A stretch of DNA of 64,000 bases from IMG/VR virus record IMGVR_UViG_3300025263_000044. One strand, 5' to 3'. The translations under genes were made by a program, and so were the position numbers. The DNA is from a virus. The notes under the pieces are model-generated. The model did no database searches, was not told the DNA's origin, and saw only the letters and a program-made list of their open reading frames with translations. Position 1 is the first letter of the stretch. Every line of letters starts with the position of its first letter. Below, piece after piece: positions 2,730 to 59,117 of the stretch.

Positions 2730-2836
2730 TTCCGCGGCAGATGTAGGAGTCTTTGCTTCAGCATCTGCATATACAAAGCTATACGGAATCGGCGACACAA
2801 AAGAGGTCGCCGCCATTTTCAAACAGAAGGAATCTC

Positions 2837-3562
2837 ATGAAACAATTCAAGAAACTGTCGGCCGCAATGCTGCTGGCTGCCCTGGGCATGGCTGGCTCCG
2901 CTATGGCTGCCGATGACCTGTCCGTAACCGGTGGTGTGCACGGCGCGACCGGCTACCAGTACCGTGGCATCCAGTTCTCCGACGGTGAAGCGTCCATCGG
3001 CGCGCACATCACCGCTGCGCACTCCTCGGGCCTGTACGGCACCCTGAAAACCGATACCATCAAGCTGACCGAAGGCACCGGCCGCCACCAGTTCCAGAGC
3101 GCCCTGACCGTTGGCTACACCGAATCCCTGTCGTCCGGCCTGAAGGTCAACGGCGGCTTCACCCGCAACATCTTCTCCGGCAAAGACCATGCGTCCGTCC
3201 TGTCCTTCAGCGAAGCCTTCGTCGGCGCGAACTGGAACGGCGTCAGCGGCAAGATTTCGACCGTCGTGGAAGGCGCCAAGCTGCAAGTTCCGGGCTTCTC
3301 GCAAGGCGACACCTACGGTGAGCTGGGCTACACCCACACCATCGGCAAGTACTCCGTCGGCGGCGACGTAGGCTACAACTGGTACGACAGCAAGAACATC
3401 GGCACCAAGAACGGCCTGGCCCTGGCCCAAGTGCGCGCGACCTACGCCATCAACAAGCAAACCCACGTGATGGTGGCTCACCAGTTTGCCGGCGACGACG
3501 CCTACGGCGACACCAACACCGGTGCCCACAAGACCGTGCTGAAGTTCTGCTACATGTTCTAA
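2837..3562 (+). CDS. TorF-like (TIGR02001-type) outer-membrane beta-barrel protein
   Basis: Signal peptide MKQFKKLSAAMLLAALGMAGSAMA, YQYRGIQFSD motif, C-terminal aromatic YMF; start moved to ATG 2837 behind the AGAAGGA RBS. Confidence 0.7.
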   Translation: MKQFKKLSAAMLLAALGMAGSAMAADDLSVTGGVHGATGYQYRGIQFSDGEASIGAHITAAHSSGLYGTLKTDTIKLTEGTGRHQFQSALTVGYTESLSSGLKVNGGFTRNIFSGKDHASVLSFSEAFVGANWNGVSGKISTVVEGAKLQVPGFSQGDTYGELGYTHTIGKYSVGGDVGYNWYDSKNIGTKNGLALAQVRATYAINKQTHVMVAHQFAGDDAYGDTNTGAHKTVLKFCYMF

Positions 3563-3585
3563 ACAGCCGGCCGGGTAAGACAGAG

Positions 3586-3615
3586 AAGCCCATTGCGAAA
3601 GCAGTGGGCTTTTTT
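3586..3615 (+). terminator. Rho-independent terminator
   Basis: AAGCCCATTGC-GAAA-GCAGTGGGCTT followed by a T tract. Confidence 0.85.
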
Positions 3616-3714
3616 GCTTTCACTTACGCGTTTTGCGGATGCCGGCGGCGAGCCGCGCAAAGCTATACCGAGAAGGATTGGGTATTCCGCCCATACTTTT
3701 AAGAGGACACAATC

Positions 3715-4296
3715 ATGCAATACATTCACGGCGACTGGTCGCACATCTTCCATCAAAACGGCCCGGACGTTTCGGTACGCATCTGCTTTGATACGCAGCG
3801 CAACGCCTTGACCCACATGAAAGTAAAGACGGCTAAAGGCTGGGCAAAACCGTCGCAAGAAGAACTGGCCGACGTTGAAGACAGTCTCAAAACCGCCAAC
3901 AGCGAGGCCCTGGAGAATCCGGACCATTGGGGCCTGGAAGCATCGGACACGCCGCCTGCCTGGGTGCCGACAACCATCCGCCTCGTGCTGGACGTCGATT
4001 TCATCCTCAACGGTGTTTCGAAAGAGACGCTGGCCGACAACTTGCGTAACCTGGTCACGCAAGGTTATTACAATGGCTTGATGTCCGGCGACACGGCGGC
4101 AGAGATTAGCGACTATGGCGTAAAGACCATCGTGCTGTCCCAGCCGCTGCCTGAAGCTGAACTCGTTGAGCACTTCGCACAGCGCATCAATGACGGGCAG
4201 CTTTCGGCGGAGGATATCCCAGTTCGCCTGGCGCGCTACGGCCAGATGGATGCTACGGACTTCGATGACGAAATGCGCGAACGCATGGGCAAATAA
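3715..4296 (+). CDS. Hypothetical protein
   Basis: 193-aa ORF, AGAGGA RBS, GCTATAC motif at 3662. Confidence 0.8.
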   Translation: MQYIHGDWSHIFHQNGPDVSVRICFDTQRNALTHMKVKTAKGWAKPSQEELADVEDSLKTANSEALENPDHWGLEASDTPPAWVPTTIRLVLDVDFILNGVSKETLADNLRNLVTQGYYNGLMSGDTAAEISDYGVKTIVLSQPLPEAELVEHFAQRINDGQLSAEDIPVRLARYGQMDATDFDDEMRERMGK

Positions 4297-4314
4297 CAAG
4301 CTTGCCCTCACCTC

Positions 4315-4345
4315 AAGCACCTCCTTCGGGAGGTGTTTTCTTTTC
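4315..4345 (+). terminator. Rho-independent terminator
   Basis: AAGCACCTCC-TTCG-GGAGGTGTTT followed by a T tract. Confidence 0.85.
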
Positions 4346-6869: not shown

Positions 6870-6880
6870 CAACTTTGTGA

Positions 6881-7639
6881 TTATGCGGCCGGCACGGGTA
6901 TAGCCCAGATGTCGGCCAGCTCCTGGATGTGCACTTCAATGTTCTGGAGCGTGAAGCCGCCATCCTCGGCACGATACCTGTTTTCAAGTTTGACAACGCG
7001 TGCTGACGGAATGTGCTTCGTAACCAGGGCGCAAAGCGCAGCCCGGCTCGAGTCACAATCGTTGACCACCCATTCCCCCTCGCTGTCGGCCGCGAAAGCA
7101 AAGCCGCGCGCCAGCATGTCGGCCTGCCACTTGAGATTGTCCGTTCCCGCGGCCGCAGCAGGCGATTCTTCGGCTTGGCGGAAAACACCGTACAGCATGC
7201 AGCTGAGCGACACGAAGCAGCCGCCCTTGCCAAAACGGATGTCGCCGATGTAACCAAAGCCTTCCTGGTCCCACCACTTTTCCAGGTGGGAAGTCAGCTG
7301 GCCGAGGCTTCCTTGCAGCATATCTGGGGCGTGTGCGCGACCCAGCTGCGCTTCTAGCTCCTTGACTCGAGCGCGCATGCGCTTCATTTCTTCGTTGCGG
7401 CGCAGGACCTCATCGGCGCCGTCAATAACCACGCCCAGGGTTTTGCCGAGGCCGGCCAAGTTGTATTCAACAGCCTTCAGGCACCCGACTGCTTGCTGCT
7501 CGGTCAAGGCAACCTGGCTAATGTCTGCGTTGGGCTTGAGGTAGCTGTGCAGTAAGGCACCAGCTTGCTGCAGTTTGACCAGAGCGCTGCAAGCTACTGC
7601 ACGCGTGTCAGCGGTCAAGTTAACAATGGGTCCGGACAT
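6881..7639 (-). CDS. Hypothetical protein (coiled-coil N-terminus)
   Basis: 252-aa ORF with a GGAGA RBS. Confidence 0.75.
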   Translation of the reverse strand: MSGPIVNLTADTRAVACSALVKLQQAGALLHSYLKPNADISQVALTEQQAVGCLKAVEYNLAGLGKTLGVVIDGADEVLRRNEEMKRMRARVKELEAQLGRAHAPDMLQGSLGQLTSHLEKWWDQEGFGYIGDIRFGKGGCFVSLSCMLYGVFRQAEESPAAAAGTDNLKWQADMLARGFAFAADSEGEWVVNDCDSSRAALCALVTKHIPSARVVKLENRYRAEDGGFTLQNIEVHIQELADIWAIPVPAA

Positions 7640-7663: not shown

Positions 7664-7678
7664 TTATATGGTATACTG
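7664..7678 (+). promoter_or_regulatory. Extended -10 sigma70 promoter for ruvB
   Basis: TTATATGGTATACTG; the identical 15-mer occurs at 55161-55175. Confidence 0.55.
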
Positions 7679-7704: not shown

Positions 7705-8760
7705 ATGAATACCACCGCGCGCCCGCGCAAATCTCGCGCTGCCGACACTGCTGCGGCGCCGGCCGAGCAAGCTCCGATTAAATCCCCGCAGGCCCAGGCT
7801 GGCGAACCAGGTGAGGACCGTGCACTGCGCCCCAAGAGCCTGGCTGATTATGTTGGCCAGCAAGCGCTGCGCGACCAGCTCGCAATCTTCCTTGCCGCGG
7901 CCAAGCACCGGTCGGAGGCTCTCGACCATGTGCTGCTGTTCGGGCCGCCGGGCTTGGGGAAAACGACGTTGGCGCAAATCATCGCTTACGAACTGGGGGC
8001 CGGGCTCAAGGTGACATCCGGGCCGGTGCTCGAGAAACCCGGCGACCTGGCTGCGCTGCTCACGCAGCTCTCCCCCAATGACGTGCTGTTCATCGACGAG
8101 ATTCATCGCCTGCCACCGGTGGTGGAGGAAGTCTTGTACCCGGCCATGGAGGATTACAAGCTCGATATCATGGTCGGCGAGGGTAAGGAAGCGCGCACCG
8201 TAACTGTTCCGTTGTCGCCCTTCACCTTGGTCGGCGCAACCACGCGCGCCGGCAGCTTGTCAGCGCCACTGCGTGACCGCTTCGGCATTACCGGCCGGAT
8301 GGAGTATTACACCGCGGAGGAACTGGAAGCCATCGTCAGCCGCTCGGCGGGCTTGCTCAGTGTTGACATGGCGCCGGGCGCCGCGCTGGAGGTGGCCAAG
8401 CGAGCGCGCGGTACCCCCCGAATTGCCAACCGGCTGCTGCGGCGCGTGCGTGACTATGCGACGGTTAACGGCGAAACCGAAGGGCAGGTCGACCTGGTCG
8501 ATGCAAAGGCTGCGCTGGGAATGCTCGGTATCGACGTCGCAGGCCTCGATACCTTGGACCGGCGCCTGATGCAAACCATGCTGGATTTCTACTCCGGCGG
8601 ACCCGTTGGCATCGAAACACTCGCGGCCGCGCTGGGAGAGGCACGCGATACGCTGGAAGATGCGGTTGAGCCTTATCTGATTCAACAGGGCCTGCTCCAG
8701 CGTACGCCTCGCGGCCGGCAGGTCACCGACATTGCGCGCAAGCACCTGGCCGGCGCATGA
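7705..8760 (+). CDS. ruvB: Holliday junction branch-migration helicase RuvB
   Basis: [70 protein letters not shown]. Confidence 0.96.
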
Positions 8761-9011: not shown

Positions 9012-9065
9012 GGATTCCTATACTTCTTCGTAGGACACTATTTAGCTAACCACACGAGGAAAGAA

Positions 9066-9401
9066 ATGAAACCAATTGTTGAACGAATCGTCATCACCCG
9101 CCTGCGCGACGTACATGGCTGGACCACGGACCCAGTATGGGACAATCGTGTATCCAAGTCGTTTAATACGACCCAAGGTCTGATGACCGCGGCGGCACGT
9201 GTCGTCACATCGTCGATGGTCGAACACTACCCGCTGATGGCGAGCTGCCTGGCGGACGGTGACAACGTTCTGACGGGTTGCATCGCCTACATCCCGGACG
9301 GTGCCAAGGAAGAAACGATTCACGCGCTCACCGATGCATTTGCTGAGCAGGTTGACCTGCAAATGGCAAACTCATTCGAGTATCAGCTGCTTGCTGCATA
9401 A
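9066..9401 (+). CDS. Hypothetical protein
   Basis: GAGGA RBS, CCTATAC at 9017, terminator downstream. Confidence 0.75.
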   Translation: MKPIVERIVITRLRDVHGWTTDPVWDNRVSKSFNTTQGLMTAAARVVTSSMVEHYPLMASCLADGDNVLTGCIAYIPDGAKEETIHALTDAFAEQVDLQMANSFEYQLLAA

Positions 9402-9494: not shown

Positions 9495-9878
9495 TTACTT
9501 GTCGAACTTGCGCGGGCGCTTAATCAGGTCGTAATGCATCATGGTTTCGCGCAGGTTGTCGCCCAGGCGCTTATCCAAGTCAGTATCCAGCACACCGATT
9601 TGACGGCAGTTCTTCACGAAATGGGAATCGATGGAATACAGGGCCGTATCGCGTACGCGAATGGTGACCTGGTCCGCCTTGAAGCTCGTACCTGGGTAGG
9701 CAGGGCTTTTCTTCGTGATGAGTACCGACCCTGGCTTGATTACGCCAGAGCGCTCATAGTTGGTCGAGCAAGGTGCTACAGCTACACGACCATCAACCAT
9801 CCCCAGTACAACTGCAGGGCGGCTTTTACGCGAAGGGTCATTCGGGAAGACCATACCGGTCACAACTACAAATTTCAT
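9495..9878 (-). CDS. PemK/MazF-like protein
   Basis: RKSRPAVVLG...VAVAPCST resembles the PemK/MazF K-x-R-P-x-V-V ... V-x-P-x-S/T pattern; 127 aa. Confidence 0.55.
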   Translation of the reverse strand: MKFVVVTGMVFPNDPSRKSRPAVVLGMVDGRVAVAPCSTNYERSGVIKPGSVLITKKSPAYPGTSFKADQVTIRVRDTALYSIDSHFVKNCRQIGVLDTDLDKRLGDNLRETMMHYDLIKRPRKFDK

Positions 9879-9992
9879 TTATGCCTCCAAAAAGGGCTAT
9901 GTCCACGTTTCTGTATAGCTCTGCGGAGGCTGTGTGAAGGCGGAAAAAGAAAACCCGCACGAATGCGGGTTGGAGTGGTGCCAGCGGGTCAG

Positions 9993-10214
9993 TTATTCCC
10001 AGCAAGCCATCTCGATGAACTTACCGTTGGCGTCAAACTTGAACTCTGTGTAGAAGCCGCCATAACCTGCCACTTTCTCTTGTCCTTTGTGGCATTCGAC
10101 GCTCGAGCCACTGTCTTGCGAGGGCTGGTCCGAAAAACCTACACCAAATTCTGACAGCAGTGCTACCAGTTTTTGTTTGTCGGTTGGAACGGTTGGGGTG
10201 GTTTGAGTCGACAT
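9993..10214 (-). CDS. Hypothetical protein
   Basis: Start MSTQTTPT behind AAGGAGGA; GCTATAC 35 nt upstream. Confidence 0.7.
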   Translation of the reverse strand: MSTQTTPTVPTDKQKLVALLSEFGVGFSDQPSQDSGSSVECHKGQEKVAGYGGFYTEFKFDANGKFIEMACWE

Positions 10215-10322
10215 GATGTCCTCCTTAAATAATGGTTGTCCTATGCCGGTATAGCGCGAGGCACCGCCCAATAAAAACCTCCACGGCATCGCTGCGCGTG
10301 GAGGTGAGGTTGGGTGTCGGCG

Positions 10323-10543: not shown

Positions 10544-10942
10544 CTACGCGGGGCACGAAACTTCATTGTGCTTCGCAGGCGGCTCGGTTACCCAGGGATG
10601 TAGGCTCGGGTGCTCGCCGGCGAAGTCCGTCGTTCCAGGCATAGTGGTGGCCCAGATGGACTTGATGCCATCTTTCAGCTCACTTGCGGTCGGTTCGCGG
10701 ACGCCGTAGTTCACGTTGGCTTCGATGGGTACTTTGCAGGGGCGACCCCTCCAGTCAGTATCCATGAAGTAGCGTGGCAACAGCGTATTGAGAATCATGG
10801 CCGCAGTCTTTGCCTTGACCATGGCCAGAGCTTGTGACTGCGCGGACGCACGATACATCGTCGACCCCCGGGTGATGCTCCAGTCCAGCCAGACTTCGGC
10901 AACACAGAGTTTTGAGGCAACCAGCTTGGCGCCGGCGCTCAT
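10544..10942 (-). CDS. Hypothetical protein
   Basis: ATGA overlap with the upstream ORF. Confidence 0.65.
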   Translation of the reverse strand: MSAGAKLVASKLCVAEVWLDWSITRGSTMYRASAQSQALAMVKAKTAAMILNTLLPRYFMDTDWRGRPCKVPIEANVNYGVREPTASELKDGIKSIWATTMPGTTDFAGEHPSLHPWVTEPPAKHNEVSCPA

Positions 10943-11478
10943 CGCTCAATCTTTCCGGACTCGACCTGGTCTGCACAATTTCCGCACAGTCCATCGTAGC
11001 CTGCGTCATCCAGGCGGGCACTGCATTTTTCGCAGTGTTCCGCCTCGCCGCCATACAGCTCGATTTGGCGCACGACCCAGTTCCAATAAGCCGGGGGCTC
11101 ATAGCCTTGGTGCGTGGCGCCAGCCCACTGGTTGCGGGAGTAGGTTGGATGCTCGCCGGCGTCAGCATTACCTGGCGCGCAGCGTTCGACGATTTTCACA
11201 ACGCGGTCGGCTTCCTCAGCGCGCACACGTTTGACGATATCGAGCAGCCACTTTTCCTGGGCAGGCGACGGTGTCAGGGAGAGGTTGAGGCGGTCACGGC
11301 AACTGCGCACCAGGCTCAATTCCTTCTCGCTCACGGATTCATGAAACACCAGGCAGTCATCGACGGCCGCACGCAGCAGCTTGTCGTGAGCATCGCGTTT
11401 CGCTTCTTCCGCTTCACGCTCTTGGCGCATTTGTGCTTGATACGCAGGGTCGCGCAGTTTGTTGAAGTCGATAGGCAT
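10939..11478 (-). CDS. Hypothetical protein with a C-terminal CxxC...CxxC zinc ribbon
   Basis: CEKCSARLDDAGYDGLCGNC; start MPIDFNK behind AAGGAGGA. Confidence 0.7.
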   Translation of the reverse strand: MPIDFNKLRDPAYQAQMRQEREAEEAKRDAHDKLLRAAVDDCLVFHESVSEKELSLVRSCRDRLNLSLTPSPAQEKWLLDIVKRVRAEEADRVVKIVERCAPGNADAGEHPTYSRNQWAGATHQGYEPPAYWNWVVRQIELYGGEAEHCEKCSARLDDAGYDGLCGNCADQVESGKIER

Positions 11479-11550
11479 AGTTTTCCTCCTTTGTTGAACA
11501 TGTCCTAGAGAGGTATAGCCAGCCTGGAGCTGCACCCGGCGCCGAACTAC

Positions 11551-12057
11551 TTAGCCAGTGTAACAGTCGTAGGTCACCTTCGCGACACGGCCGCGGCGGG
11601 TCTTGAATGATACCCCGCTCAGGTCCCCATAACGGTAAGCGAGTTCCGTATCTCCGGCAGCAAGACGTCCCAGAGCGCGGCGCGCCGCAGCCGCCGGCTG
11701 CCCGACATGGAAGGGCGCCAAGTGTTGCCACTGCTTGCCCTGGATTTCAGCGTAACTGAGCATGTACTTTTTCGGGTTGTCGGAGAAGGTCCAGAAGCCC
11801 AGGGTCATCCCCTTGAAGGTCACCTCACGGTAGGTCGTGGTGGAGCGGTCGGACCAGTCCTCGGTCTGCCCATCGACGGTGCGCAACACGGCGCCGAGCT
11901 TCATCACCTGGGGCAGGGTGGCCGGCAGGCGCAGGGCATAGGCGCCACTGCCGCAATCGAAATCCATATACCGCTCGAGCGGTTCGGCGACACCAGCAGC
12001 GCCAGCACCAGAGGCGGCAACCAGGAGGAACGAGAGCAGGGCGAAGCGCGATTTCAT
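11551..12057 (-). CDS. Secreted hypothetical protein
   Basis: Signal peptide MKSRFALLSFLLVAASGAGA. Confidence 0.7.
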   Translation of the reverse strand: MKSRFALLSFLLVAASGAGAAGVAEPLERYMDFDCGSGAYALRLPATLPQVMKLGAVLRTVDGQTEDWSDRSTTTYREVTFKGMTLGFWTFSDNPKKYMLSYAEIQGKQWQHLAPFHVGQPAAAARRALGRLAAGDTELAYRYGDLSGVSFKTRRGRVAKVTYDCYTG

Positions 12058-12182
12058 ATTCAACTCCACGAATCAATAAAGAGTGGTGGTATAGCGCGGC
12101 CGGCGAGCCGTAAAACCATACCCCAAGAAACCACAGAAATTAACGAGCGATTTTCAAAAACGGACTTTCACGCCAAAACTAC

Positions 12183-12365: not shown

Positions 12366-12517
12366 ATTATATGGCCGAATTTCGTTTCCGCAAGGCATTT
12401 CTGCGATATTTTCTGGCTGGCTGCAAGGGATGCTGGGGCGCTATACCGGTCAAGTGCGATGTTCGTAAAAACACACATCAAGCGCGTATCGCTCGATTTA
12501 ACGACCAAAGGAAATTC

Positions 12518-12946
12518 ATGATTTCACTACGACCTTATCGGAACCTGGCCTGGGTTGCCGGCGCCATCGGCTTCGCCGTGACCCTCGCGTACGTTCTTGC
12601 TTCCAATGGTGAGGGCCAGTTCTACCAGCGCTCGCCGTTGATGTGGGACTTGCGCCTGGAGGCGCAAAAGGACCCAGTCTCCGGCCGCGACACTTCGGCG
12701 GTCCTGCTTAAGCACTACCCGGCGGGGACGGATAAACAGGTGGTGGTCACCGGCTTGCTGAACTCTGGCTTCCAGGTGCTGTCCATGGTGCCATGCAAGG
12801 CCGGTGACTATGACGCGTGCGAGTTGGTCGTCTTAGACGCTTCGCACCAGCGGTCCTTCACGAAGACCTCGCACCGAGTCTCACTGGTGTTCGCGCATGG
12901 CAAACTGACCGCGGCCCGGGCGCACATCGGGTTGACCGGCATTTAA
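12518..12946 (+). CDS. Membrane-anchored hypothetical protein
   Basis: N-terminal TM segment LAWVAGAIGFAVTLAYVLA; AAGGA RBS. Confidence 0.7.
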   Translation: MISLRPYRNLAWVAGAIGFAVTLAYVLASNGEGQFYQRSPLMWDLRLEAQKDPVSGRDTSAVLLKHYPAGTDKQVVVTGLLNSGFQVLSMVPCKAGDYDACELVVLDASHQRSFTKTSHRVSLVFAHGKLTAARAHIGLTGI

Positions 12947-14687: not shown

Positions 14688-14936
14688 TTAGGCGTTCTCG
14701 TCGACCAGGTCGCTGATGGTGTCTTCGTGGAGTTTGGAGCTGGTGCCGATGTTGTGGTCCAGCGGTTCATCGCGGGTGACGTAGACGTCGGTAACCAGTC
14801 CTTCATGGGTTGCGTTGAAGTGCAGTTCGCCTGGTTCGTCTTCGCCAGGTACAGGCATGTTTTCGTAGATGATGCGTACGCCTTGCGGGGCTGCCACAAA
14901 AGTGACGCCGCCATCGATGCTGACCTTCATGTTCAT
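14688..14936 (-). CDS. Hypothetical protein
   Basis: GAGGAG RBS; hairpins on both sides. Confidence 0.75.
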   Translation of the reverse strand: MNMKVSIDGGVTFVAAPQGVRIIYENMPVPGEDEPGELHFNATHEGLVTDVYVTRDEPLDHNIGTSSKLHEDTISDLVDENA

Positions 14937-15048
14937 ATATTTCTCCTCAGATTTGGTTAAGGCAATGCCATGGGAAGTTCTGTCCTACAGGCGTGTATAG
15001 CCAAAAAGAAAAGCGCCAGCAGGCTGGCGCTTCGAGAGGAACTTAATC

Positions 15049-15324
15049 TTACCTGCAGGCTTCAATGCCTTTTTCGATATGGCCAGCCATTTCAGCCAAG
15101 TCCTCGGCATTTAGTTCACTGCCATTGCGCAGTACATGCACCACGGCGGCAATGCCAGCTCGGATTTCTTCCGATGCTTTTGGGTCGCTCTGTACCTCGG
15201 CTAGTGACAGATGGCAAACGTTGAACAATTCATCCTGCAAGGCGGGAGTTGGCGCCTTTACGTAGGTCAGTCCGCGTTCCAGTTGAGACTTGAGCTTGAT
15301 GGTGTTAATGGTGACGGAAGTCAT
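15049..15324 (-). CDS. Hypothetical protein
   Basis: AAGGA RBS; GCTATAC 36 nt upstream; terminator at about 15004-15031. Confidence 0.75.
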   Translation of the reverse strand: MTSVTINTIKLKSQLERGLTYVKAPTPALQDELFNVCHLSLAEVQSDPKASEEIRAGIAAVVHVLRNGSELNAEDLAEMAGHIEKGIEACR

Positions 15325-15451
15325 AGTATGTCCTTATGGGTAGTCGAAAATCACGCACCGTATAGCCAATTTTGGCAGTTCCCATGACCAATGCAAGAAA
15401 CTATAAAGAACGGCCTCTAAGTGCTAGCACTGGGGCCGTGAGAACTCACGC

Positions 15452-16144
15452 TCAGACCTCAAGCTTGTAAAGCACTTGCGTCACTGGCTCGGAAGTTTGT
15501 TCGGTCGGACGGCTGCGAATATACCTGGAATAGGGGCCGTCTAAGTCGCCAAAAACCTGCCCTTCGGTAATCGTCGACCAGGAGTAGGGGCCAATCTTTT
15601 GTAAATTGAGGGCGACCTGGCGCAACCAACTCGACAGTGCCGGGCTGCGCTCAATGCGCTCGTTGAGTACTCGAGTCGCTTCTTCGTCGCGGCGCGCGCG
15701 ACACGTTTTGGGGTCATCCACGACACGAAATGCTGCCGAACCGTAGATTCGCCGGTGATGGTCACGCTCGTTGCAAAGCTGAATATCGCAACGCTTTCCG
15801 TAATTGCTTTCAAAGAAAGCCCTCATCTCAACCAGCATCTCACGGAACTCAGCCAGTTCCGCAGCTGGAGCCTCCGCCGGTAGCAGCATGAGCTTTGCCA
15901 GGTTCAATTCGATGATGGCGCCTTTATCGCAAGCTCTCCACGAAAGGTCGATTTCCTGGATGGCCTTCTTAACCAAATCCAGGCGAAGGTTCAACAAGCG
16001 AAGTTCAAGAAAGGTGATGTCCAAGTACTGCCGGACATCGCTCAGATTTTTGATGGGGAGTACATCCTTGTAGGCCAGGATGCTGATTCGACCCGCAGAA
16101 TCTGCCGAATCGATAAGAGTGATGAAATTTGTGCTGTCTGCCAT
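15452..16144 (-). CDS. Hypothetical protein
   Basis: Start MADSTNF behind AAAGGA; GCTATAC at 16184. Confidence 0.7.
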   Translation of the reverse strand: MADSTNFITLIDSADSAGRISILAYKDVLPIKNLSDVRQYLDITFLELRLLNLRLDLVKKAIQEIDLSWRACDKGAIIELNLAKLMLLPAEAPAAELAEFREMLVEMRAFFESNYGKRCDIQLCNERDHHRRIYGSAAFRVVDDPKTCRARRDEEATRVLNERIERSPALSSWLRQVALNLQKIGPYSWSTITEGQVFGDLDGPYSRYIRSRPTEQTSEPVTQVLYKLEV

Positions 16145-16218
16145 GATGTCCTTTATTCGTTTGTCCAGGTGTTTTGCCACTCTGTATAGCGTGACGGTGT
16201 TGGACGGCAGACAGGTGC

Positions 16219-20149: not shown

Positions 20150-20226
20150 TGGAGTGTTCTCGTGTTTTTAAGGGTGCGGCCGGTCGAACTGGGTATAGCC
20201 AAAATATGCTGTCGTATGCCCAGCTC

Positions 20227-27584: not shown

Positions 27585-27641
27585 GATATTTCCTTTACAA
27601 GAGTGGATAGCCTACTGTTGTATAGGAAAGGGGCGCTTCGG

Positions 27642-36516: not shown

Positions 36517-38685
<2,169 letters not shown>

Positions 38686-41367: not shown

Positions 41368-41497
41368 TATGTCCTCTCAGTAGTTATATTGAACAATGCA
41401 TAACATAGTCGTCGTGCAATCAGTATAGCTGCTGGCGGTCGGCCGACCCCATATGAAAAAACCCCGCTATGCGGCGGGGCACTTTCAACGGGGATAT

Positions 41498-42555: not shown

Positions 42556-42727
42556 GGTGTTTTCCTTTATCTGATGCCGACTTGAATGTCTGGCGGGTTG
42601 TCCTGCCTCCGTATAGCCAAAGTTGACTCAATGGTATTTACAGCCTGGCGACGCCCGGGTTACCACCCGGGCTGCACACCAACTTCTCGCTATACCTACT
42701 GAGTTCTTAACTATCGCGAGGAAAACT

Positions 42728-45368: not shown

Positions 45369-45479
45369 CATTGTGACCCCGGTGGCATGTCTATCGAGAT
45401 TCTGCCAGGCTCCTGGCGCATTTTTCAGCTTGTCCTCGTTCCTATACTCATTCAGGTAAACCACTTAGAGGACATCAAA

Positions 45480-46934: not shown

Positions 46935-46962
46935 TTGCCACAAACATTATTTGTGGTATACT
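46935..46962 (+). promoter_or_regulatory. Sigma70 promoter overlapped by an inverted repeat
   Basis: TTGCCA-16 nt-TATACT; CCACAAA-N5-TTTGTGG at 46938-46956. Confidence 0.6.
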
Positions 46963-47005
46963 TATGCGTAAATCGCAACTAACATCCTAACTGAAGGAAT
47001 TTACC

Positions 47006-48772
47006 ATGAATGCTCCAGTCGTCCGCGCCCCACTGAATGGCACCATCCCAATGAACCTGGCTGACTTCTACAAGACCGGCCACCCGGGCATGTACCCAAG
47101 CGAGACCACTTCGCTGGTCGCTAACTTCACTCCACGTTCGGACAAGTATTCTCCAGTGCGGGATTCGGCGCTGAATGACCACAAGGTAGTGTGGTTCGGC
47201 ATTACCGGCTTCATCAAGGAATTCCTCATCAACACCTTCAACGCCGAGTTCTTCAAGGCGCCGAAAGCGCAAGCGGTGCGCAAGTACAAGCGCCGCGTCG
47301 ATACCGCGCTGGGCTACAACAAGGTATCGATGAGCCAGCTGGAACGCTTGCACGACCTGGGCTACCTGCCGCTGGAAATTCGCTCGCTGCCGGAAGGCTC
47401 CCGTGTGAACATCAAAGTTCCGCCGGTCGTGTTCATCAGCACCGACGACGCCTTCCCATGGGTTTCCACCTACTTCGAAACCCTGTTCAGCTGCGAAAAC
47501 TGGAAGCCATCGACCGTGGCAACCATCGCCTTCGAATTCCGTAAAGTGCTGACCTACTTCGCTAAGATGACCGGTTCGCCGCTGGACTTCGTGGGCTGGC
47601 AGGGCCATGACTTCTCGATGCGCGGCATGAGCGGCGTGCACGACGCTGCCCGCTGCGGCGCCGGCCACCAACTGAGCTTCTTCGGCACCGATACCATCCC
47701 GGCCATCGACTACCTGGAAGACTACTACAACGCCAACAGCGAAACTGAACTGGTCGGCGGCTCCGTGCCGGCAACCGAGCACAGTGTGATGACCCTGCGC
47801 ATCCTGCTGGTGGTGAAGCGCCTGGAAAAGAAACTGAAGGACGCAGCAAAAGACACCAAGGCCCTGCGCAAGCAAGCTGAAGAAGAAGTCATCCGCGAAC
47901 TGATTACCGAGCTGTTCCCATCGGGCATCATCTCCATCGTGGCCGACTCGTTCGACTTCTGGAACGTCATCACCGTTATCGCTCCGGCCCTGAAGAAGCT
48001 CATCCTGGCCCGCACCCCGGACGAGCTGGGCAACGCCAAGGTGGTCTTCCGTCCGGACAGCGGCGACCCAGTCAAGATTCTGACCGGCTACATCGTCAAG
48101 GACGTGCCTTCCCTGTCGTCTGGCGCCCTGTTCGAAGCCTCGCTGAATGGCGCCGAAGCGGTTCGCTTCGAAGGCCGCTACTACGAAATCGTAGCCGAAG
48201 CAGGCAACGTTTTCTCGGCCAAAGAAATCGCCGAGCACGAAGCAAAAGGCGCTGTCGAATGCCTGTACGACACCTTCGGCGGCACCATTACCGACAAGGG
48301 CTACAAACTGCTGGATTCGCACGTCGGCCTCATCTACGGCGACTCCATCACCCTGAAGCGCGCCATCGAAATCATGTCCCGCCTGGCTGCCAAGAAGTTT
48401 GCGTCTGGTAACGTGGTATTGGGCATCGGTAGCTACACCTACCAGTACCTGACCCGCGACGCGTTCGGCTGGGCGATGAAAGCCATCTACGCAGAAGTCG
48501 GCGAAGACACCGTCGAAATCTACAAAGACCCGGCGACTGACGACGGCACCAAGAAGTCGGCTAAAGGCCTGCTGCGCGTCGAGAAGGAAGGCAACGACTT
48601 CGTGCTGTACGAGCAACAGACCCGCGAAGAGTTCGACCGCGGCGCCCTGGTGCCAATCTACCGCAACAGCGTGCTGCTGGTAGACCCTGCACTGGCTGAA
48701 ATCCGCGAACGCCTGTGGTCGTCGTGGGAATGCCCGGAACCTGGCACTGTCGACTTCGGCATTGCTGCCTAA
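47006..48772 (+). CDS. Nicotinamide phosphoribosyltransferase-like protein (candidate NARP1 Namat)
   Basis: ADFYKTGH, HDFSMRG, GTDTIPA, VPATEHSVM, SIVADSFD, RPDSGDP, IYGDSIT, KKSAKG. Confidence 0.92.
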   Translation: MNAPVVRAPLNGTIPMNLADFYKTGHPGMYPSETTSLVANFTPRSDKYSPVRDSALNDHKVVWFGITGFIKEFLINTFNAEFFKAPKAQAVRKYKRRVDTALGYNKVSMSQLERLHDLGYLPLEIRSLPEGSRVNIKVPPVVFISTDDAFPWVSTYFETLFSCENWKPSTVATIAFEFRKVLTYFAKMTGSPLDFVGWQGHDFSMRGMSGVHDAARCGAGHQLSFFGTDTIPAIDYLEDYYNANSETELVGGSVPATEHSVMTLRILLVVKRLEKKLKDAAKDTKALRKQAEEEVIRELITELFPSGIISIVADSFDFWNVITVIAPALKKLILARTPDELGNAKVVFRPDSGDPVKILTGYIVKDVPSLSSGALFEASLNGAEAVRFEGRYYEIVAEAGNVFSAKEIAEHEAKGAVECLYDTFGGTITDKGYKLLDSHVGLIYGDSITLKRAIEIMSRLAAKKFASGNVVLGIGSYTYQYLTRDAFGWAMKAIYAEVGEDTVEIYKDPATDDGTKKSAKGLLRVEKEGNDFVLYEQQTREEFDRGALVPIYRNSVLLVDPALAEIRERLWSSWECPEPGTVDFGIAA

Positions 48773-48815: not shown

Positions 48816-48904
48816 ATATGGGTCGCTGCCGGGAACGCACACTGAGCTATACCTTTTCGTGACTAACTATGCGCGAGCAATGCCCGTGCGACCGAAAAGG
48901 AAAT

Positions 48905-49879
48905 ATGATGAAGAAGAATGCAACCCCGACCGTCCAGTGCTTCGATTTCGAACAGGCGAAGGCAGAGTTTTTGAAACAGGTGAAAGCCAACCCTTGCCCT
49001 GGCCAACGCAATCACGAAGAGCAAAACGCTGCCGGCCGGACCCACATTCAAAGCTGGGAAGTTCCGTCCACTCAGGCGATAATTCATGCCGTGAAGGTTC
49101 TGGGCACAATGGGGCGCGGCAAGCGTAAGCTTATCCTCATCGACGGCTACCATCGCCTTGCGCATTGGTTTGGTCTGAATGAGTGCCCCTTCGACAAGTT
49201 GGTGATTGTCATTCACCCAATCGAAGCTAACAGCCCTGACGAGTTGACAGAACGCCTGGATGCTCTGGCGCGCACTATCGATAGCAAGAGCGCAGTTAAG
49301 GCAAACAAAGACCGGTGGTGTGCAGCTGTGCGCGACGCAGGTTTTGAAGATGCCAAGTCTCAAGCCTACAAGCTGGGATTCCGTGCAAACAGCTACTTTA
49401 AGCGTGTCTTGAAGTCTCCAGCAGATTCGATGCTGAAGCTGACGGCTCGTGCGAAAGAAGATTTGCCAGTGCACGTTCGGATGGACCGGCTGTTTGCGGT
49501 CAGCGAGACGCAAATGAGCCGTTCGGATGCAACTGAATTCTTCCATGCCGGCGTACAGACTGCGATGTTTGCAGGGTTCCGTATGCTGCCAGAAGAGAAG
49601 CATGAGGCCGCAGCGACCCAGCTGGAGCTGATGTTGGTGAAACTGGGCCAACCAAGCACTAGTGCAATCTACCGCATGACGAAGTTGACGCCTGAAGTTG
49701 AGGCAATCTTCAATAGGTTGTCCGACCTGGCCACCCAGAAGGAGAAGACCGCTCTGCGTGCCATCGGTAATCGCGAAGACTACTACAATGCAGTCATCGA
49801 GGAGCTGAAGCCGTTGGTTGAGGCTTTCTGCGCCAGCCTGGCTCAAGTAGGAAAGAAACGTAGCCGCAAAGCTGCATAA
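48905..49879 (+). CDS. Hypothetical protein with a possible ParB/Srx-like N-terminal domain
   Basis: LILIDGYHRL. Confidence 0.5.
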   Translation: MMKKNATPTVQCFDFEQAKAEFLKQVKANPCPGQRNHEEQNAAGRTHIQSWEVPSTQAIIHAVKVLGTMGRGKRKLILIDGYHRLAHWFGLNECPFDKLVIVIHPIEANSPDELTERLDALARTIDSKSAVKANKDRWCAAVRDAGFEDAKSQAYKLGFRANSYFKRVLKSPADSMLKLTARAKEDLPVHVRMDRLFAVSETQMSRSDATEFFHAGVQTAMFAGFRMLPEEKHEAAATQLELMLVKLGQPSTSAIYRMTKLTPEVEAIFNRLSDLATQKEKTALRAIGNREDYYNAVIEELKPLVEAFCASLAQVGKKRSRKAA

Positions 49880-50506: not shown

Positions 50507-50701
50507 GGAGTTTGTTTGGTTGGCATATTGCGCTTTACATAGTATACCAAATTTCCAATTGAGGCAACTTGGCTCAATGCCATCCTGGCTCAGTAGACCT
50601 TTTACCCAAATTAACCAGGCGTCTATCAGAAAGAAAAATCTTATTTGCATTTTGCGAGTATTTTTGTTATACTGTGAACCATCTAAGCAAAAGAGGTTCC
50701 C

Positions 50702-51379
50702 ATGGAATTTGAAAAACCAATCCTGACCGTCGACATCGTCGTGCTGACGATGATTGCTGGTCGCATCCACGTCGCGCTTGCGCCTCGTGATAAAGAACCT
50801 GAGAAAGATAAGCCGGCGCTGTTCGGTTCGTATGTGCACACGAATGAAGATAACGACGGCCTGGCCGCCGCATTCCGCACGCTGCGCACCAAACTGGATT
50901 TCACGCCACGTTACATCGAGCAAGTCTTTACTGCGGCCAGCGCAAAACGCGACCCGCGCGGCTGGTCGGCTAGTATCGTGTACATGGCGGTACATGACCA
51001 TGATTCGCTGGGCCCATTGATGGAAGAGCGTGGCCTGACGCTTTACGATGCTGAAGATGGCGGCGTGCATCTGCCTGAAAACATTGCCTTCGACCATCGT
51101 GAACTGGTCATCAAAGCAGTCGAGCGCCTGCGCTCCAAGGCTGGCTACTCGACCATCGTTGGCTACTTTTTGCCAGAAGCCTTCACCCTGGCGACGTTGC
51201 AAAGTATTTACGAAGTCGTCCTGGGCCGCGACTTGAATGCGCCGAACTTCCGCCGCAAGATTCTGGATACCCGGGATGTGCTGACCCCGACTGGTGAAAT
51301 GCTGCATGGCAGGGGCCGACCATCTCAAGGTTACCGCCTGACCCGCTATATCGACTACTTCGACCGCGAGCTCACCTAA
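50702..51379 (+). CDS. NrtR-like protein (Nudix domain plus C-terminal winged helix)
   Basis: LTVDIVVL, RDPRGWSASIVY, AFDHRELV, FTLATLQSIYEVVLG, NFRRKI, GRGRPS; Nudix box degenerate; promoter TTGCAT-17 nt-TATACT at 50645-50673. Confidence 0.85.
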   Translation: MEFEKPILTVDIVVLTMIAGRIHVALAPRDKEPEKDKPALFGSYVHTNEDNDGLAAAFRTLRTKLDFTPRYIEQVFTAASAKRDPRGWSASIVYMAVHDHDSLGPLMEERGLTLYDAEDGGVHLPENIAFDHRELVIKAVERLRSKAGYSTIVGYFLPEAFTLATLQSIYEVVLGRDLNAPNFRRKILDTRDVLTPTGEMLHGRGRPSQGYRLTRYIDYFDRELT

Positions 51380-54018: not shown

Positions 54019-54067
54019 CTATACCTTAGGTAGGAAAAATCAAACTTTGACAACTTAAGGAGGAAAT

Positions 54068-54442
54068 ATGAAGCAATTTATCGTTCCGGCATTCATGGTC
54101 GTGTCGGCTGACAGTGTGCAAGTCGCGGACCAGATGGCTGCGCAGCTGCAAGCAATGCCTGGCTTCCGTAATGGCGTGGCACTGCTCCTGGACGAGCAGC
54201 TGGATACTCGCGAGATTCAGCAAGCGGATTTGTCCGAAATCCATTCAATTCGTGACGTCTACGATATTCCAGCGGAAAGCGTCGAAGTTGCGCCCCACGC
54301 AAACACCGGTTCAGACCTCGATAGCTTGCGTGCGCTGTGCGCGCAGCTGCTGGGCGACCTGAAACTTCGTGTTGTGGACCGCGCTGACTCCAACCTGCCG
54401 GAATGGGAACGCATGGCCGACAAGCTCGGTGTGGCTCTTTAA
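54068..54442 (+). CDS. Hypothetical protein
   Basis: GGAGGA RBS; terminator at about 54465-54490. Confidence 0.75.
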   Translation: MKQFIVPAFMVVSADSVQVADQMAAQLQAMPGFRNGVALLLDEQLDTREIQQADLSEIHSIRDVYDIPAESVEVAPHANTGSDLDSLRALCAQLLGDLKLRVVDRADSNLPEWERMADKLGVAL

Positions 54443-54493: not shown

Positions 54494-54521
54494 TTGACAA
54501 ATGTGCGAATTAAGCTATACT
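54494..54521 (+). promoter_or_regulatory. Sigma70 promoter with a palindrome over -35
   Basis: TTGACA-16 nt-TATACT; TTTGTCA-T-TGACAAA at 54487-54501. Confidence 0.65.
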
Positions 54522-55205: not shown

Positions 55206-55394
55206 ATGAGCGACAGCTTTTTTGAGGCCAGCCGGGCGGCCGGCGAGTATCCCCGCAAAGACTACAACCGCCAAACTGAAGCTGAAAAGCGTGTTGAAAT
55301 TACGCGCAAAGTAGGCTCCGGGTGGCGGTTGCCTTGGGTTCTCAAGGAAGCGGAACGCCTGGGCATCGAGGTGCCCGCGGAGCAGTCCACCTGA
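55206..55394 (+). CDS. Hypothetical protein
   Basis: Follows the promoter TTATATGGTATACTG at 55161. Confidence 0.6.
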   Translation: MSDSFFEASRAAGEYPRKDYNRQTEAEKRVEITRKVGSGWRLPWVLKEAERLGIEVPAEQST

Positions 55395-55440
55395 TGGTTG
55401 TCCTATACCCGAATAGGACAACCATCACAAAGGACAATCT

Positions 55441-56022
55441 ATGGCTTGGCGTTCACCTGTACCATTCAAATTAATCCCTACATCCGACTCGGAATCGTTT
55501 ACTACGATGCCTAAGTGGACCACCGGGCTTCCCTTGGCGCCCCATCCTGGCGCCTTCGCAGTTCAACGAAAGATGCACATCCATGAGGGTGTCGACATCT
55601 ACATGCCGCAGGGCGCCCCGGTCTTTGCAGTTGAAGACGGCGAGGTGCTGGCGGTAAAGCCGTTCACCGGCCCGCACGCGGGCCACGGTGATTGGTGGCT
55701 CAATACTTTTGCTGTTTGGGTCCAAGGCGCCTCGGGTGTCGTGGTCTACGGCGAAATCGGTGCTCACGTCAAAAAAGGGCAGAAGGTCGTAGCTGGCCAG
55801 GTTGTAGGTGTCGTCGTTCGCGTACTTGCGAAGGATAAAGGCCGGCCAACCAGCATGCTCCACCTGGAGCTGCGCGAGCCCGGTAATACCGCGGACATCG
55901 ACTGGCAGAACGGTACCGCGCGCCCACAAGGCTTGCTGGACCCGACGCCCTATTTGCTCGAATGCATCGCAGCTGACATTCCTGCAGGTGAAACTTCAAC
56001 CAAGCCGAAGGAGAATCAGTAA
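55441..56022 (+). CDS. M23-family peptidase-like protein
   Basis: HEGVDIY, GAPVFAVEDGEV, VKKGQKVVAGQVVG, LHLE, DPTPYL. Confidence 0.75.
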   Translation: MAWRSPVPFKLIPTSDSESFTTMPKWTTGLPLAPHPGAFAVQRKMHIHEGVDIYMPQGAPVFAVEDGEVLAVKPFTGPHAGHGDWWLNTFAVWVQGASGVVVYGEIGAHVKKGQKVVAGQVVGVVVRVLAKDKGRPTSMLHLELREPGNTADIDWQNGTARPQGLLDPTPYLLECIAADIPAGETSTKPKENQ

Positions 56023-56375: not shown

Positions 56376-56481
56376 TCCAACTCCCAAACCCCGGTCCTTC
56401 CGGGGTTTCTTTTCAAGTTGGTCGCCCTCCAGCTGCGGGCGGGCTATACCTTGCTAGGCCATACTTTTTTAGGAGAACACC

Positions 56482-57642
56482 ATGCCTGATTTGACCAAAT
56501 ATCTGCCCCTTTCCGCCATGCAGCCATTTTTTGACAACGTCTCCATTGGCAGCAACCCTACCGATGCCTGGCGTACCAAATACTTCGCGCAACTGGAGGA
56601 AATCATTCGCCCGGCCCTCGTTGAGTTCTTCCTTGAGCTCAAAAAAGAAGGCCGCCTGCAGCCGATTCCGAACAGCGAAGGGTACTCCACACGCCTGTGG
56701 GATGCCTGGAACGCCGCAGCGAATCTGTCCGTGGACGCCCCAGCAGCTGACTTACAGGGTGCCATGGAAGCCATGCTGTTCAAGTTTGAGCATCACCTGG
56801 CCTTCGACACTACCTACGAATACAGCAAGCACCTGGAAAAACTCGGGTTGACCTCTGACGATTCGTTCGATAAAGGCGCAGCTTACGCAAAGGTCTTTGG
56901 AGAGTTCAATGGGGGCACCGTTCCGTTCCTCTTTAACCATGAGACCTGCCAAAACACCGGCCTGCCGCTCACCTTGCGTCTCAAAAATTGGGCCATTTCG
57001 GGTTTATATATCTCCCAAAATGGAATTCACCCTATTGAACCAGCAGCGCCAGCAAAACTGCAGGAAACGGTAGTGGAGTTCAAGACAGGTAACCTGTTGA
57101 TTGCGGACTGGTTCCGTATCGAAGCATTTACGAAACATGTTGATGCTCACTCGGACTCCCTGGAATCGCGCAATGGTCGGGAAGAAATTGTGCGCCGACT
57201 GGCTGAAGACTTTGGGGTCATCAGTGTCAGCGTGCTGAACACCTGCCCTGGTGTATTCAAGGACGGAAACCATCTGACTGTAGGCTACTTCGATGACGAA
57301 GAAGGTTCCCTTCCTTCACGATTCACTCATGTCGGCAATGTCATCACAGACCTGTGGGCAGTGACTATCGTCGAATATGAAAACCTCGTCAACCTGGTAG
57401 CCCATACTCACCCTGAAAATGCAAAGGAAACCGTTGACGATTACCTGAGCAAGCAAGGTAAAGGGCTGTATGGCATGCATAGTATGAAGGTAGAACCAGG
57501 CACCTACTACCTGTACCACTCCGGCGAGCATGAACAATTCGCTGAGCTGGCTACTGCTGCTGGCATCAAACTGGATACGGGCGATATCGAGCCCTTCTTC
57601 ATGTTATCGCCATCTCGATTGCTGCCGGTCAGCGCCGCATAA
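56482..57642 (+). CDS. Hypothetical protein
   Basis: AGGAG RBS; GCTATAC 33 nt upstream. Confidence 0.8.
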   Translation: MPDLTKYLPLSAMQPFFDNVSIGSNPTDAWRTKYFAQLEEIIRPALVEFFLELKKEGRLQPIPNSEGYSTRLWDAWNAAANLSVDAPAADLQGAMEAMLFKFEHHLAFDTTYEYSKHLEKLGLTSDDSFDKGAAYAKVFGEFNGGTVPFLFNHETCQNTGLPLTLRLKNWAISGLYISQNGIHPIEPAAPAKLQETVVEFKTGNLLIADWFRIEAFTKHVDAHSDSLESRNGREEIVRRLAEDFGVISVSVLNTCPGVFKDGNHLTVGYFDDEEGSLPSRFTHVGNVITDLWAVTIVEYENLVNLVAHTHPENAKETVDDYLSKQGKGLYGMHSMKVEPGTYYLYHSGEHEQFAELATAAGIKLDTGDIEPFFMLSPSRLLPVSAA

Positions 57643-57739
57643 ACACTGACCGCATCGACACTCCTCGCCCAGGTTCTCCTGGGCGATTTTTTGCGGCCAG
57701 AACTATACAACAGCAGGAAACAGCAAAAAAGGAGCACCC

Positions 57740-57802
57740 ATGTGCGTCAAATTTAATCCGGCCGGCCGCGCGCCGAGCGTGAAAATCAAGGAGTTTGTAT
57801 GA
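57740..57802 (+). CDS. Candidate 20-aa leader ORF (MCVKFNPAGRAPSVKIKEFV)
   Basis: AAGGAG RBS; its stop overlaps the ATG at 57799. Confidence 0.4.
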   Translation: MCVKFNPAGRAPSVKIKEFV

Positions 57803-58704
57803 GTGGATTTAAGAGCAACTGCGAGCGTTACCGCGTGTCGCTGAACTGCGAGCACGCTACCATCTGCCTGGATACCTGGTCACGGGCCAACGCCGGCAGC
57901 GAGCGCCCTACCTACGGTGGTGAAATCATGATTCACTCCAGTTTTGGCTCCTACGGCCACACCTGGTCGAATTGCGGCGTTCCCTTCAAAGAGTTCCTCC
58001 TGGATATCTCGAGGGATTCTTTCATGACCAAATGCTTGGGCCGCAGCTACATGGAGTTCGATGGAGAGGCTTCCGTTGCTAGCATCAGGAAGGCAATTCT
58101 GACGCACCGGCGCGCGGGCGAGTTCGACACCGCCGAAGAGGCACGGGAGGCTTGGAATGACCTGGAAAGCTTCCGTGATGCAGCGGAATCCAGTGAAGAC
58201 CTATTCTTCCATCTCGTAGGCGAGTCACTCTGCACCGAAGAGTCGGTTCTGGGTGAGGCCCGAGCTTACCGCGTTGACCGCCCTTGCACGCAAGCAGTGG
58301 GCTTCTGGCGCGAACTTTGGCCAGAGTTTAAGGCTATGTTGGCCGAGGAAGTGCGCCAGGATGTCGTACTCAAGGAGGAGTTTCCGAAGATGAAGCTCGA
58401 GGGTTGGCCGGAGGCCTTGTTTATCGCGGTGACGTCACTGTACTTCGACGAAAACTACGATTACAAGTTCGCCGTGCTGGGCGTGGTCAAAGCTATGGCG
58501 CCGCACTGGCTGGCCGAAATGGACGACAACCCGAAGGAGCTTTTCGCGAAAAGCCGCATGCTATTGGCAGCGTCTAAGCGGAATCCCGAGCTGGCCAAGC
58601 AGATTCCTGGACGCCCTGATGCAGCGAAAGACACAGAAATCGACATCCTAAAAGATGCGGCCGCGGCGCTGGGCTACACCTTGCAGCCGGCAACGCCTGT
58701 CTAA
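57799..58704 (+). CDS. Hypothetical protein
   Basis: 301 aa, AAGGAG RBS, terminator at about 58710-58735. Confidence 0.8.
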   Translation: MSGFKSNCERYRVSLNCEHATICLDTWSRANAGSERPTYGGEIMIHSSFGSYGHTWSNCGVPFKEFLLDISRDSFMTKCLGRSYMEFDGEASVASIRKAILTHRRAGEFDTAEEAREAWNDLESFRDAAESSEDLFFHLVGESLCTEESVLGEARAYRVDRPCTQAVGFWRELWPEFKAMLAEEVRQDVVLKEEFPKMKLEGWPEALFIAVTSLYFDENYDYKFAVLGVVKAMAPHWLAEMDDNPKELFAKSRMLLAASKRNPELAKQIPGRPDAAKDTEIDILKDAAAALGYTLQPATPV

Positions 58705-58785
58705 ACCTCAACCCCGACTTGCTCGGGGTTTTTCTTGTCACAAAAGAAAAAGCCTCTCAACGAGAGGCTTTGGAGCGGGGCAATA

Positions 58786-59040
58786 TCAAGCTGCGATTTT
58801 TTGCGGCTCGAAGCGATGAGCGATTTCCTCGAGCCATTCGTTTTGTTCGTCGGTCATCGGGGTTTCCGACTTCAACGACCATTGGCAAAGGCGTACGAGT
58901 CGCTGCTCGCTTGGGCGCAGTTTGGCCAGGTTCGGCCAGCACGAATTGAAAGTGTTGCGAGTCTTGGACAGCAACGCAATGCGATTCGCGGCATCAGCTG
59001 CTTGGGTATTGCTCTGTGCACGGTGAATGGAGTTGGTCAT
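58786..59040 (-). CDS. Hypothetical protein
   Basis: GAGGA RBS; TCTATAC 33 nt upstream. Confidence 0.65.
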   Translation of the reverse strand: MTNSIHRAQSNTQAADAANRIALLSKTRNTFNSCWPNLAKLRPSEQRLVRLCQWSLKSETPMTDEQNEWLEEIAHRFEPQKIAA

Positions 59041-59117
59041 GGCAGTCCTCTGTAAGTGGTTTTCCTTTAACCGTATAGACGAGGACTACTACCATCAAAT
59101 TCACCCTTCAATCACTG

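Follow-up and report, generated by a model that had tools for sequence, protein, structure and literature searches.

A probable lineage-specific CTATAC promoter class with a putative start box on giant Burkholderia-linked elements, and its possible element-encoded reader

The 64,000-nucleotide stretch of IMG/VR virus record IMGVR_UViG_3300025263_000044 analyzed here, called the window, comes from rhizosphere metagenomes and belongs to a very large element: the contig carrying its 386-amino-acid (386-aa) protein (56482-57642) measures up to 572,366 bp. Our own gene map of the window, obtained with a codon-usage model and with gaps filled by hand, contains 79 genes and is 86% coding, and no tRNA genes or Rfam matches were found in it. 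The element encodes a phage-like set of proteins, comprising a class II ribonucleotide reductase (RNR), NAD ligase, Nampt/Prs, RNA ligase, a dNMP-kinase-like protein, a GP38-like adhesin domain and SmpB, together with a DnaE2/ImuB-like pair, two-component regulators and HipA. An earlier reading of the sequence alone had proposed that the motif (G)CTATAC, placed at a fixed distance before accessory genes, marks a private promoter class. Our analysis showed that two promoter classes built on one TATAC core are present in the window element. Class A has the form TGN-TATAC-T, usually with AT-rich DNA upstream or with a TTGACA −35 element, and class B has the form (G)C-TATAC-N, without −35, without TG and with an unconstrained base at −7. 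The 23 copies of CTATAC listed by the sequence-only reading are the following; the second element of class B, a start box described below, is given where assigned, with its gap from the hexamer in bases.

2779..2784, + strand: class B, then G; 52 nt to the ATG of the Gcw_chp-like gene 2837-3562
3663..3668, + strand: class B, then C; 46 nt to the ATG of gene 3715-4296
9018..9037, + strand: class B with AGGACA, gap 8; gene 9066-9401
9900..9918, − strand: class B with TGGACA, gap 7; gene 9495-9878; terminator hairpin upstream
10237..10254, − strand: class B with AGGACA, gap 6; gene 9993-10214; terminator upstream
11501..11518, − strand: class B with AGGACA, gap 6; gene 10939-11478
12089..12094, − strand: class B; 31 nt to the ATG of gene 11551-12057
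12441..12446, + strand: class B; 71 nt to the ATG of gene 12518-12946
14981..15000, − strand: class B with AGGACA, gap 8; gene 14688-14936; terminator 6 nt upstream
15360..15365, − strand: class B; 35 nt to the ATG of gene 15049-15324
16184..16189, − strand: class B; 39 nt to the ATG of gene 15452-16144
20193..20198, − strand: class B; gene 19634-20149
27608..27625, − strand: class B with AGGCTA, gap 6; gene 27219-27584
41423..41428, − strand: CTATAC then T, without −35; gene 40876-41367; terminator upstream
42599..42616, − strand: class B with AGGACA, gap 6; gene 42115-42555; back-to-back with the site at 42690
42690..42695, + strand: class B; DndC-like gene 42728-44929; the orthologous site in relative L090 keeps CTATACC..TGAGTTC
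45442..45459, + strand: class B with AGGTAA, gap 6; gene 45480-45854
48847..48852, + strand: class B; gene 48908-49879; terminator upstream
54019..54037, + strand: class B with AGGAAA, gap 7; gene 54068-54442
55403..55420, + strand: class B with AGGACA, gap 6; M23 peptidase gene 55441-56022; within an 11-bp inverted repeat
56444..56461, + strand: class B with AGGCCA, gap 6; conserved 386-aa gene 56482-57642; footprint kept in six relatives
57703..57720, + strand: class B with AGGAAA, gap 6; 20-codon leader open reading frame (ORF), then gene 57799-58704
59061..59078, − strand: class B with AGGAAA, gap 6; gene 58786-59040; orthologous L090 site at 12278

CTATAC is strongly over-represented in the whole 64-kb window, with 30 matches against 7.49 ± 2.82 expected, and so is GCTATAC, with 19 matches against 2.52 ± 1.64, a count of at least 19 being reached in 0 of 100 shuffles. 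Nearly all copies occupy one kind of place: 27 of the 30 are non-coding, lie within 100 nt 5′ of a start codon and point the same way as the gene, two are in other non-coding DNA and one is in coding DNA, which bears out the intergenic and strand enrichment expected of the proposed promoter class. In the upstream zone, defined as non-coding DNA at most 100 nt 5′ of start codons on the same strand (4.8 kb in total), CTATAC ranks first for enrichment among the 4096 hexamers, and its single-base variants show no enrichment. Orientation follows the downstream gene strictly, including at the back-to-back pair 42611(−)/42690(+). At eight of the 23 sites a strong terminator hairpin with a T tract lies within a few tens of bases upstream, so that the promoter of the next gene must fall in the short remaining gap. 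In shuffles that keep protein and codon usage, intragenic copies proved depleted both on the sense strand (3 versus 9.2 expected, P ~0.02) and on the antisense strand (0 versus 3.9, P ~0.01), as would be expected if the hexamer alone were active.

All 16 GCTATAC positions of the sequence-only reading are exact, and its seven copies with another first base are all present. Three further GCTATAC copies were absent from its list: one at 6898(−), which is intragenic, and two at 54514(+) and 63837(−), each with T as the next base and with TTGACA or TTGACG 16-17 nt upstream. Its tight spacing to the ATG was reproduced, given a one-base counting difference, with 31-35 nt between hexamer end and start codon in 11 of the 23 copies and 39-90 nt in the remainder. 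TATAC is likewise mostly followed by a base other than T (C in 11, A in 5, G in 4 and T in 3 copies). Two parts of the proposal need revision. The leading G holds for the window element (16 of 23) but not for its relatives, where −14 is mostly C. The motif is also not confined to accessory genes, since conserved family genes, namely those for the 386-aa protein, the DndC-like enzyme and the M23 peptidase, also sit behind class B sites.

To compare the two classes, all TATAC sequences of the window were listed and then pooled with those of its flanks and of four relatives, which gave 54 sites with C at −13 and 20 sites with TG at −15/−14. T at −7 is present in 17 of the 20 TG sites and in 12 of the 54 C−13 sites (Fisher p = 1.3e-6), and several of the T-bearing C−13 sites also have a −35 element. 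A few CTATACT copies carry TTGACA, TTGACG or TTGCGN 16-18 nt upstream, among them those at 54494-54521, 63836-63864 and 45999-46028. The class B logo contains no information in any column upstream of −14 and thus no TTGACA-like hexamer; position −14 is G or C and −15 shows no preference for T, so that the TG and T−7 of an extended −10 element are both missing. A scan with the sigma-70 consensus matched class A and the −35-bearing sites and found 0 class B sites, in agreement with the absence of a −35 element noted earlier. The contrasting promoters of housekeeping-like genes were also found as described: the window contains ten TGN-TATACT sites, including those of HU, ruvB, Nampt and NrtR, while ligA has TGGTATAAT and the TerD-like gene TTGACG-17-TATACT. 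The T-at-minus-7 rule is therefore kept in the host-like promoters and ignored by class B of the same DNA, which provides an internal control. The host-type sites are as follows.

2358..2366, + strand: class A, TGGTATACT, HU gene 2427-2729
7669..7677, + strand: class A, TGGTATACT, ruvB 7705-8760
36565..36573, + strand: class A, TGGTATAAT, ligA 36604-38685
46954..46962, + strand: class A, TGGTATACT with TTGCCA −35, Nampt gene 47006-48772
50665..50673, + strand: class A, TGTTATACT, NrtR-like gene 50702-51379
54494..54521, + strand: sigma-70-type, TTGACA-16-(GC)TATACT
63836..63864, − strand: sigma-70-type, TTGACG-17-(GC)TATACT, ~200 nt 5′ of the TerD-like gene 61348-63627

Class B sites contain a second conserved element, overlooked by the sequence-only reading, in the form of a box (T/C)AGG(A/C)(A/C)A located five to eight bases 3′ of the hexamer. 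The combination TATAC-N4-9-AGGMMA occurs 10 times in the window against 0.28 expected, and in the pooled set [A/T]GG is found at the box position in 29 of 54 class B sites and in one of 20 class A sites (p = 1e-4). The logo of 30 sites aligned at AGG reads A-G-Y-A-G-G-M-M-A; the gap is most often 6 nt, 26 of these sites have Y at −1 and 27 have A at +1. In a subset, the initial transcribed sequence, counted from the inferred start, is conserved to about +10 (AGGACAACCA). Counted from the end of TATACN, taken as the −10 hexamer, the A of the box occupies base 6 and the first G base 7. Bacterial polymerases start at about that distance from the −10 element, and a pyrimidine at −1 and a purine at +1 are usual; we therefore read the box as the transcription start. 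Transcription most likely begins at the A, or at the first G, of AGG, 6-7 nt past the hexamer, which would give 5′ leaders of ~25 nt ending in a normal ribosome-binding site.

Both elements are conserved among related giant replicons. The contigs of the window element and its relatives span 440-640 kb, and homologues of the 386-aa protein with 44-56% identity are encoded on contigs of 578,827, 592,846, 630,577 and 640,310 bp. Three of the contigs with 386-aa homologues are named Burkholderia ubonensis at NCBI and belong to assemblies of cultured isolates; WL29_23085 and WJ96_06050 are encoded on B. ubonensis contigs of this kind. CTATAC and the start box precede orthologous genes in the syntenic relatives L087, L090, L172, L173 and L174, which share 48-55% protein identity with the window and have a GC content of 60-63%. 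In an alignment of seven upstream regions of the 386-aa gene, invariance is limited to CTATAC, GGCCA, the ribosome-binding site and the start codon, the DNA outside these elements being unalignable across relatives. An unbiased repeat of the count in 49 kb of the 578,827-bp relative (JGI Ga0495672_0000007) put CTATAC first among upstream hexamers once more; 17 copies are upstream, four in other non-coding DNA and none in coding DNA. Distant relatives (≤34% identity) show no CTATAC enrichment, so the signal belongs to one clade.

A further 386-aa homologue lies at position 9964 of a non-syntenic 74-kb contig (L175) without any CTATAC. Its upstream region keeps GGTAACAGGCCAT, and the hexamer reads CGATAC, as if the gene had moved with its promoter and the promoter had then decayed; this contig was excluded from the family statistics. 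The class II RNR was tried as a lineage marker and rejected, as it led to 80 IMG/VR loci of 56-71% identity that lack the motif and have unrelated GC content. A scan with ruvB gave only ~60% matches, to Legionella and others, and so pointed to no host. No relatives of the 759-aa TerD/RING-like and 386-aa proteins were found in IMG/VR, no members of the 386-aa family in PLSDB or the GTDB species genomes, and no near match of the window among plasmids or phages.

Taken together, these features make it very probable that class B is a promoter, and probable, with less certainty, that its specificity differs from that of the host-type promoters of the element. A −10 element, a discriminator of 5-6 nt, a pyrimidine at −1 and a purine at +1 point to a multisubunit bacterial RNA polymerase with a sigma-family factor. 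The recognition profile is unlike that of sigma-70, with −13, −10, −9 and −8 invariant and −7 free. We propose that class B is a lineage-specific two-element promoter without −35, composed of CTATAC (−13 to −8) and the start box, and that core polymerase would read it with a specificity factor other than that used at TGN-TATACT and TTGACA promoters. The most likely reader, by analogy with gp55 of T4, would be a sigma-like protein whose gene lies in another part of the ~0.57-Mb replicon. The class B architecture, a single −10-region box without −35 and with a putative start 6-7 nt downstream, would fit a promoter of the T4 late type. We give this explanation as a whole, a lineage-specific promoter read by a distinct and possibly element-encoded sigma-like factor, a probability of about 0.5; for the part of it that places the reader on the element, the chance appears to be a shade under even. 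A tentative wider picture, which we hold as a possibility short of an even chance, is that of a giant (0.44-0.64 Mb) rhizosphere-Burkholderiales element family with a large share of its genes on a private two-part promoter, whose element-encoded sigma-like or polymerase reader ignores the T-at-minus-7 rule.

The two transcription programmes proposed from the sequence alone thus stand as far as the two classes are concerned, on the evidence of the −7 contrast, the start box and conservation, but not as regards an element-encoded reader, for which no gene was found in the DNA reached. No sigma, gp55-like or RNA polymerase genes were found in ~170 kb of annotated family DNA, which is well under half of the ~570-kb replicon. 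Searches with Pfam and PHROGs found no sigma factor among ~60 window proteins, and no sigma or polymerase Pfam families turned up in ~18 kb upstream of the window on its own element or in the 49-kb stretch of the 578,827-bp relative, of which ~28 kb lie beyond L087. A tblastn search with T4 gp55 against ~300 kb (the window, close and distant relatives) gave nothing below E = 0.7, and comparison with the ESM Atlas of two uncharacterized proteins, one encoded at 32948-33646 downstream of a class A promoter and the other at 6881-7639, yielded nothing usable.

These negative results, limited to that part of the replicon, count somewhat against an element-encoded factor and for the main alternative, in which a host RpoS-type sigma, or host sigma-70 with a stabilizing cofactor, reads class B. 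On this view, a stably carried giant replicon would use ordinary −35-less stationary-phase or stress promoters with C at −13 for its cargo. The RpoS −10 consensus is CTATACT or KCTAYRCTTAA, with a degenerate or absent −35 (PMC5650638). CTATAC equals the first six letters of CTATACT, so that a host sigma could be the reader, and C at −13 indeed accompanies a TATACT-like −10 at these sites, CTATAC being invariant by definition of the class. The G at −14 in 16 of the 23 window sites fits the K of the consensus, and the TATAC core is shared with the sigma-70-type promoters of the element itself. The Burkholderia ubonensis assemblies also count against an element-encoded factor, because carriage in cultured isolates suggests stable maintenance, where use of a host sigma is common. 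So does the start box: host core polymerase itself favors a T at −1, an A at +1 and a G at +2 through its start-site and core-recognition-element preferences, and the box could just compensate for a weak host promoter. A distinct factor is favored by the base at −7. T at this position is read by both sigma-70 and sigma-S through a dedicated pocket, yet it is present in 3 of the 23 window sites and 12 of the 54 pooled sites, whereas 17 of the 20 promoters with TG in this DNA have it. In addition, class B lacks the TTAA with which the RpoS consensus continues, and −10 elements of the sigma-70 family are not usually so strictly invariant at −10, −9 and −8. Nor does the class B profile match TAnAAT, the −10 consensus that transcription start site mapping gave for Burkholderia (PMC4603805). 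Overall, we regard reading by a host factor as rather unlikely.

An element-encoded but non-canonical RNA polymerase, either single-subunit or a split multisubunit enzyme of the phiKZ/AR9 type, appears improbable. Such enzymes recognize a short upstream box together with the start site, and the promoter of the AR9 non-virion polymerase is AACA-N6-TW. The bipartite geometry of class B (short box, 6-nt gap, conserved start) resembles that promoter, and the conservation to about +10 in a subset of sites and the phage-like gene set of the element would also suit such an enzyme, but the DNA examined yielded no polymerase gene, and the TATAC core common to sigma-70-type promoters points to sigma-family recognition. 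A T7-type contiguous block of ~17-23 bp ending at +1 is not found either, only 6 + ~6 positions separated by a variable gap. Still less probable, and in our view very unlikely, is that CTATAC...TAGG serves as the operator of a dimeric repressor or activator that overlaps an unrecognized weak promoter, and thus marks a regulon without being the promoter. CTA and TAG are complementary, and long perfect inverted repeats occur at two sites, window 55392-55430 (11-bp arms) and L090 8532. A palindromic operator was nevertheless rejected for lack of general dyad symmetry: arms of at least 5 bp occur at 5 of 54 sites compared with 8.5% in shuffled controls. Moreover, class B is strictly oriented with the downstream gene, and the gaps between terminator and start codon contain no other promoter-like sequence.

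Like RpoS promoters of E. coli and Pseudomonas (PMC5650638), class B combines C at −13 with a TATAC core, often G at −14 (in the window) and no need for −35; it differs from them in the unconserved T at −7, the missing TTAA, the Y-AGG-MMA start box and the strictly invariant −10 to −8, and, in contrast to the RpoS stress regulon, it dominates a mobile replicon. Extended −10 sigma-70 promoters (TGnTATAAT) work without a good −35 and are the type that the element uses for HU, ruvB, ligA, Nampt and NrtR, whereas class B lacks both the TG at −15/−14 and the T at −7. T4 late promoters have TATAAATA at −10 and no −35, and gp55 reads them together with gp33 and the gp45 clamp. They share with class B a single short −10-region element, the absence of −35 and coexistence with host-type promoters, and class B too lies amid a phage-like repertoire; they differ in sequence and lack a conserved start box. 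Furthermore, T4 late promoters serve virion genes, whereas class B genes are mostly small unknown and metabolic ones, and the search of the family DNA found no gp55 homologue. Promoters of phage sigma factors such as phiEco32 gp36 likewise have one box near −10 and no −35, and, as in class B, their regulon is private to the phage or plasmid; their sequence shows no relation to that of class B, and the family DNA examined yielded no such sigma.

Our literature searches, which covered the motif, giant Burkholderia elements and jumbo-phage promoters, turned up no description of the signal. If the reader is element-encoded, a very large and undescribed Burkholderia-linked replicon family would run a self-contained transcription programme, with a mode of −10 recognition that ignores the base normally read most strictly by sigma-70-family proteins. 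If host RpoS reads class B, the case would be more ordinary, yet it would show a giant replicon placing the bulk of its cargo under a single host stress sigma. As a practical tool, the 6 + 6 nt signature can be used to annotate transcription units, to flag family members in metagenomes and to aid the search for the reader by co-occurrence, and class B offers a compact, possibly orthogonal promoter for Burkholderiales.

Several promoter regions of the window have features of their own. A ~200-nt leader (63628-63836, −) without an Rfam match separates the TTGACG-17-TATACT promoter from the gene for the 759-aa TerD/RING-like protein. The region 22382-22581 upstream of the class II RNR contains two CTATACT copies and several TGACAA/TTGTCA inverted repeats, an arrangement that suggests a regulated promoter with dedicated operators. 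Directly 3′ of the −10 elements of Prs and Nampt (46011-46035 and 46957-46985, +), a conserved TATACT-TAATCGTAAA(T)GCGA-like box is found; in L087 (19752), L090 (20446) and L174 (19786) it occurs at a 356-aa gene, likewise 3′ of the −10. It is a candidate operator, possibly for the neighboring NrtR-like regulator.

The mixed gene repertoire of the family fits a giant phage or a giant plasmid alike. Outside the window, family DNA from the 578,827-bp relative (L198, record 302040-323815) and from L191 encodes SmpB, the DnaE2/ImuB-like pair, an adhesin-like protein with He_PIG and GP38 domains, RNase H, RNA ligases, an ADP-ribosylglycohydrolase, a second HU and a HipA/HTH pair. Within the window, 59118-60329 (−) is an adenylosuccinate-synthetase-like gene whose conservation in the family extends to L087 and L090, and which belongs to the PurZ-like PHROGs family phrog_1211. 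The best solved-structure matches of its product are ordinary bacterial PurA proteins, with no PurZ entry below E = 1e-10, so this gene alone does not support a 2-aminoadenine pathway.

Two class B promoters have additional neighboring features. The promoter of the M23 peptidase gene is enclosed by a perfect 11-bp inverted repeat, GGTTGTCCTAT / ATAGGACAACC (55392-55430, +), which directly follows the stop codon of a 62-codon ORF, and a similar 14-bp palindrome occupies the orthologous place in L090 (8532). The repeat may represent an extra operator or an RNA hairpin at that single promoter. Downstream of the class B site at 57703, a 20-codon ORF (57740-57802, +) with a good ribosome-binding site has a stop codon that overlaps the start of gene 57799-58704 (ATGA), and it possibly encodes a coupled leader peptide.

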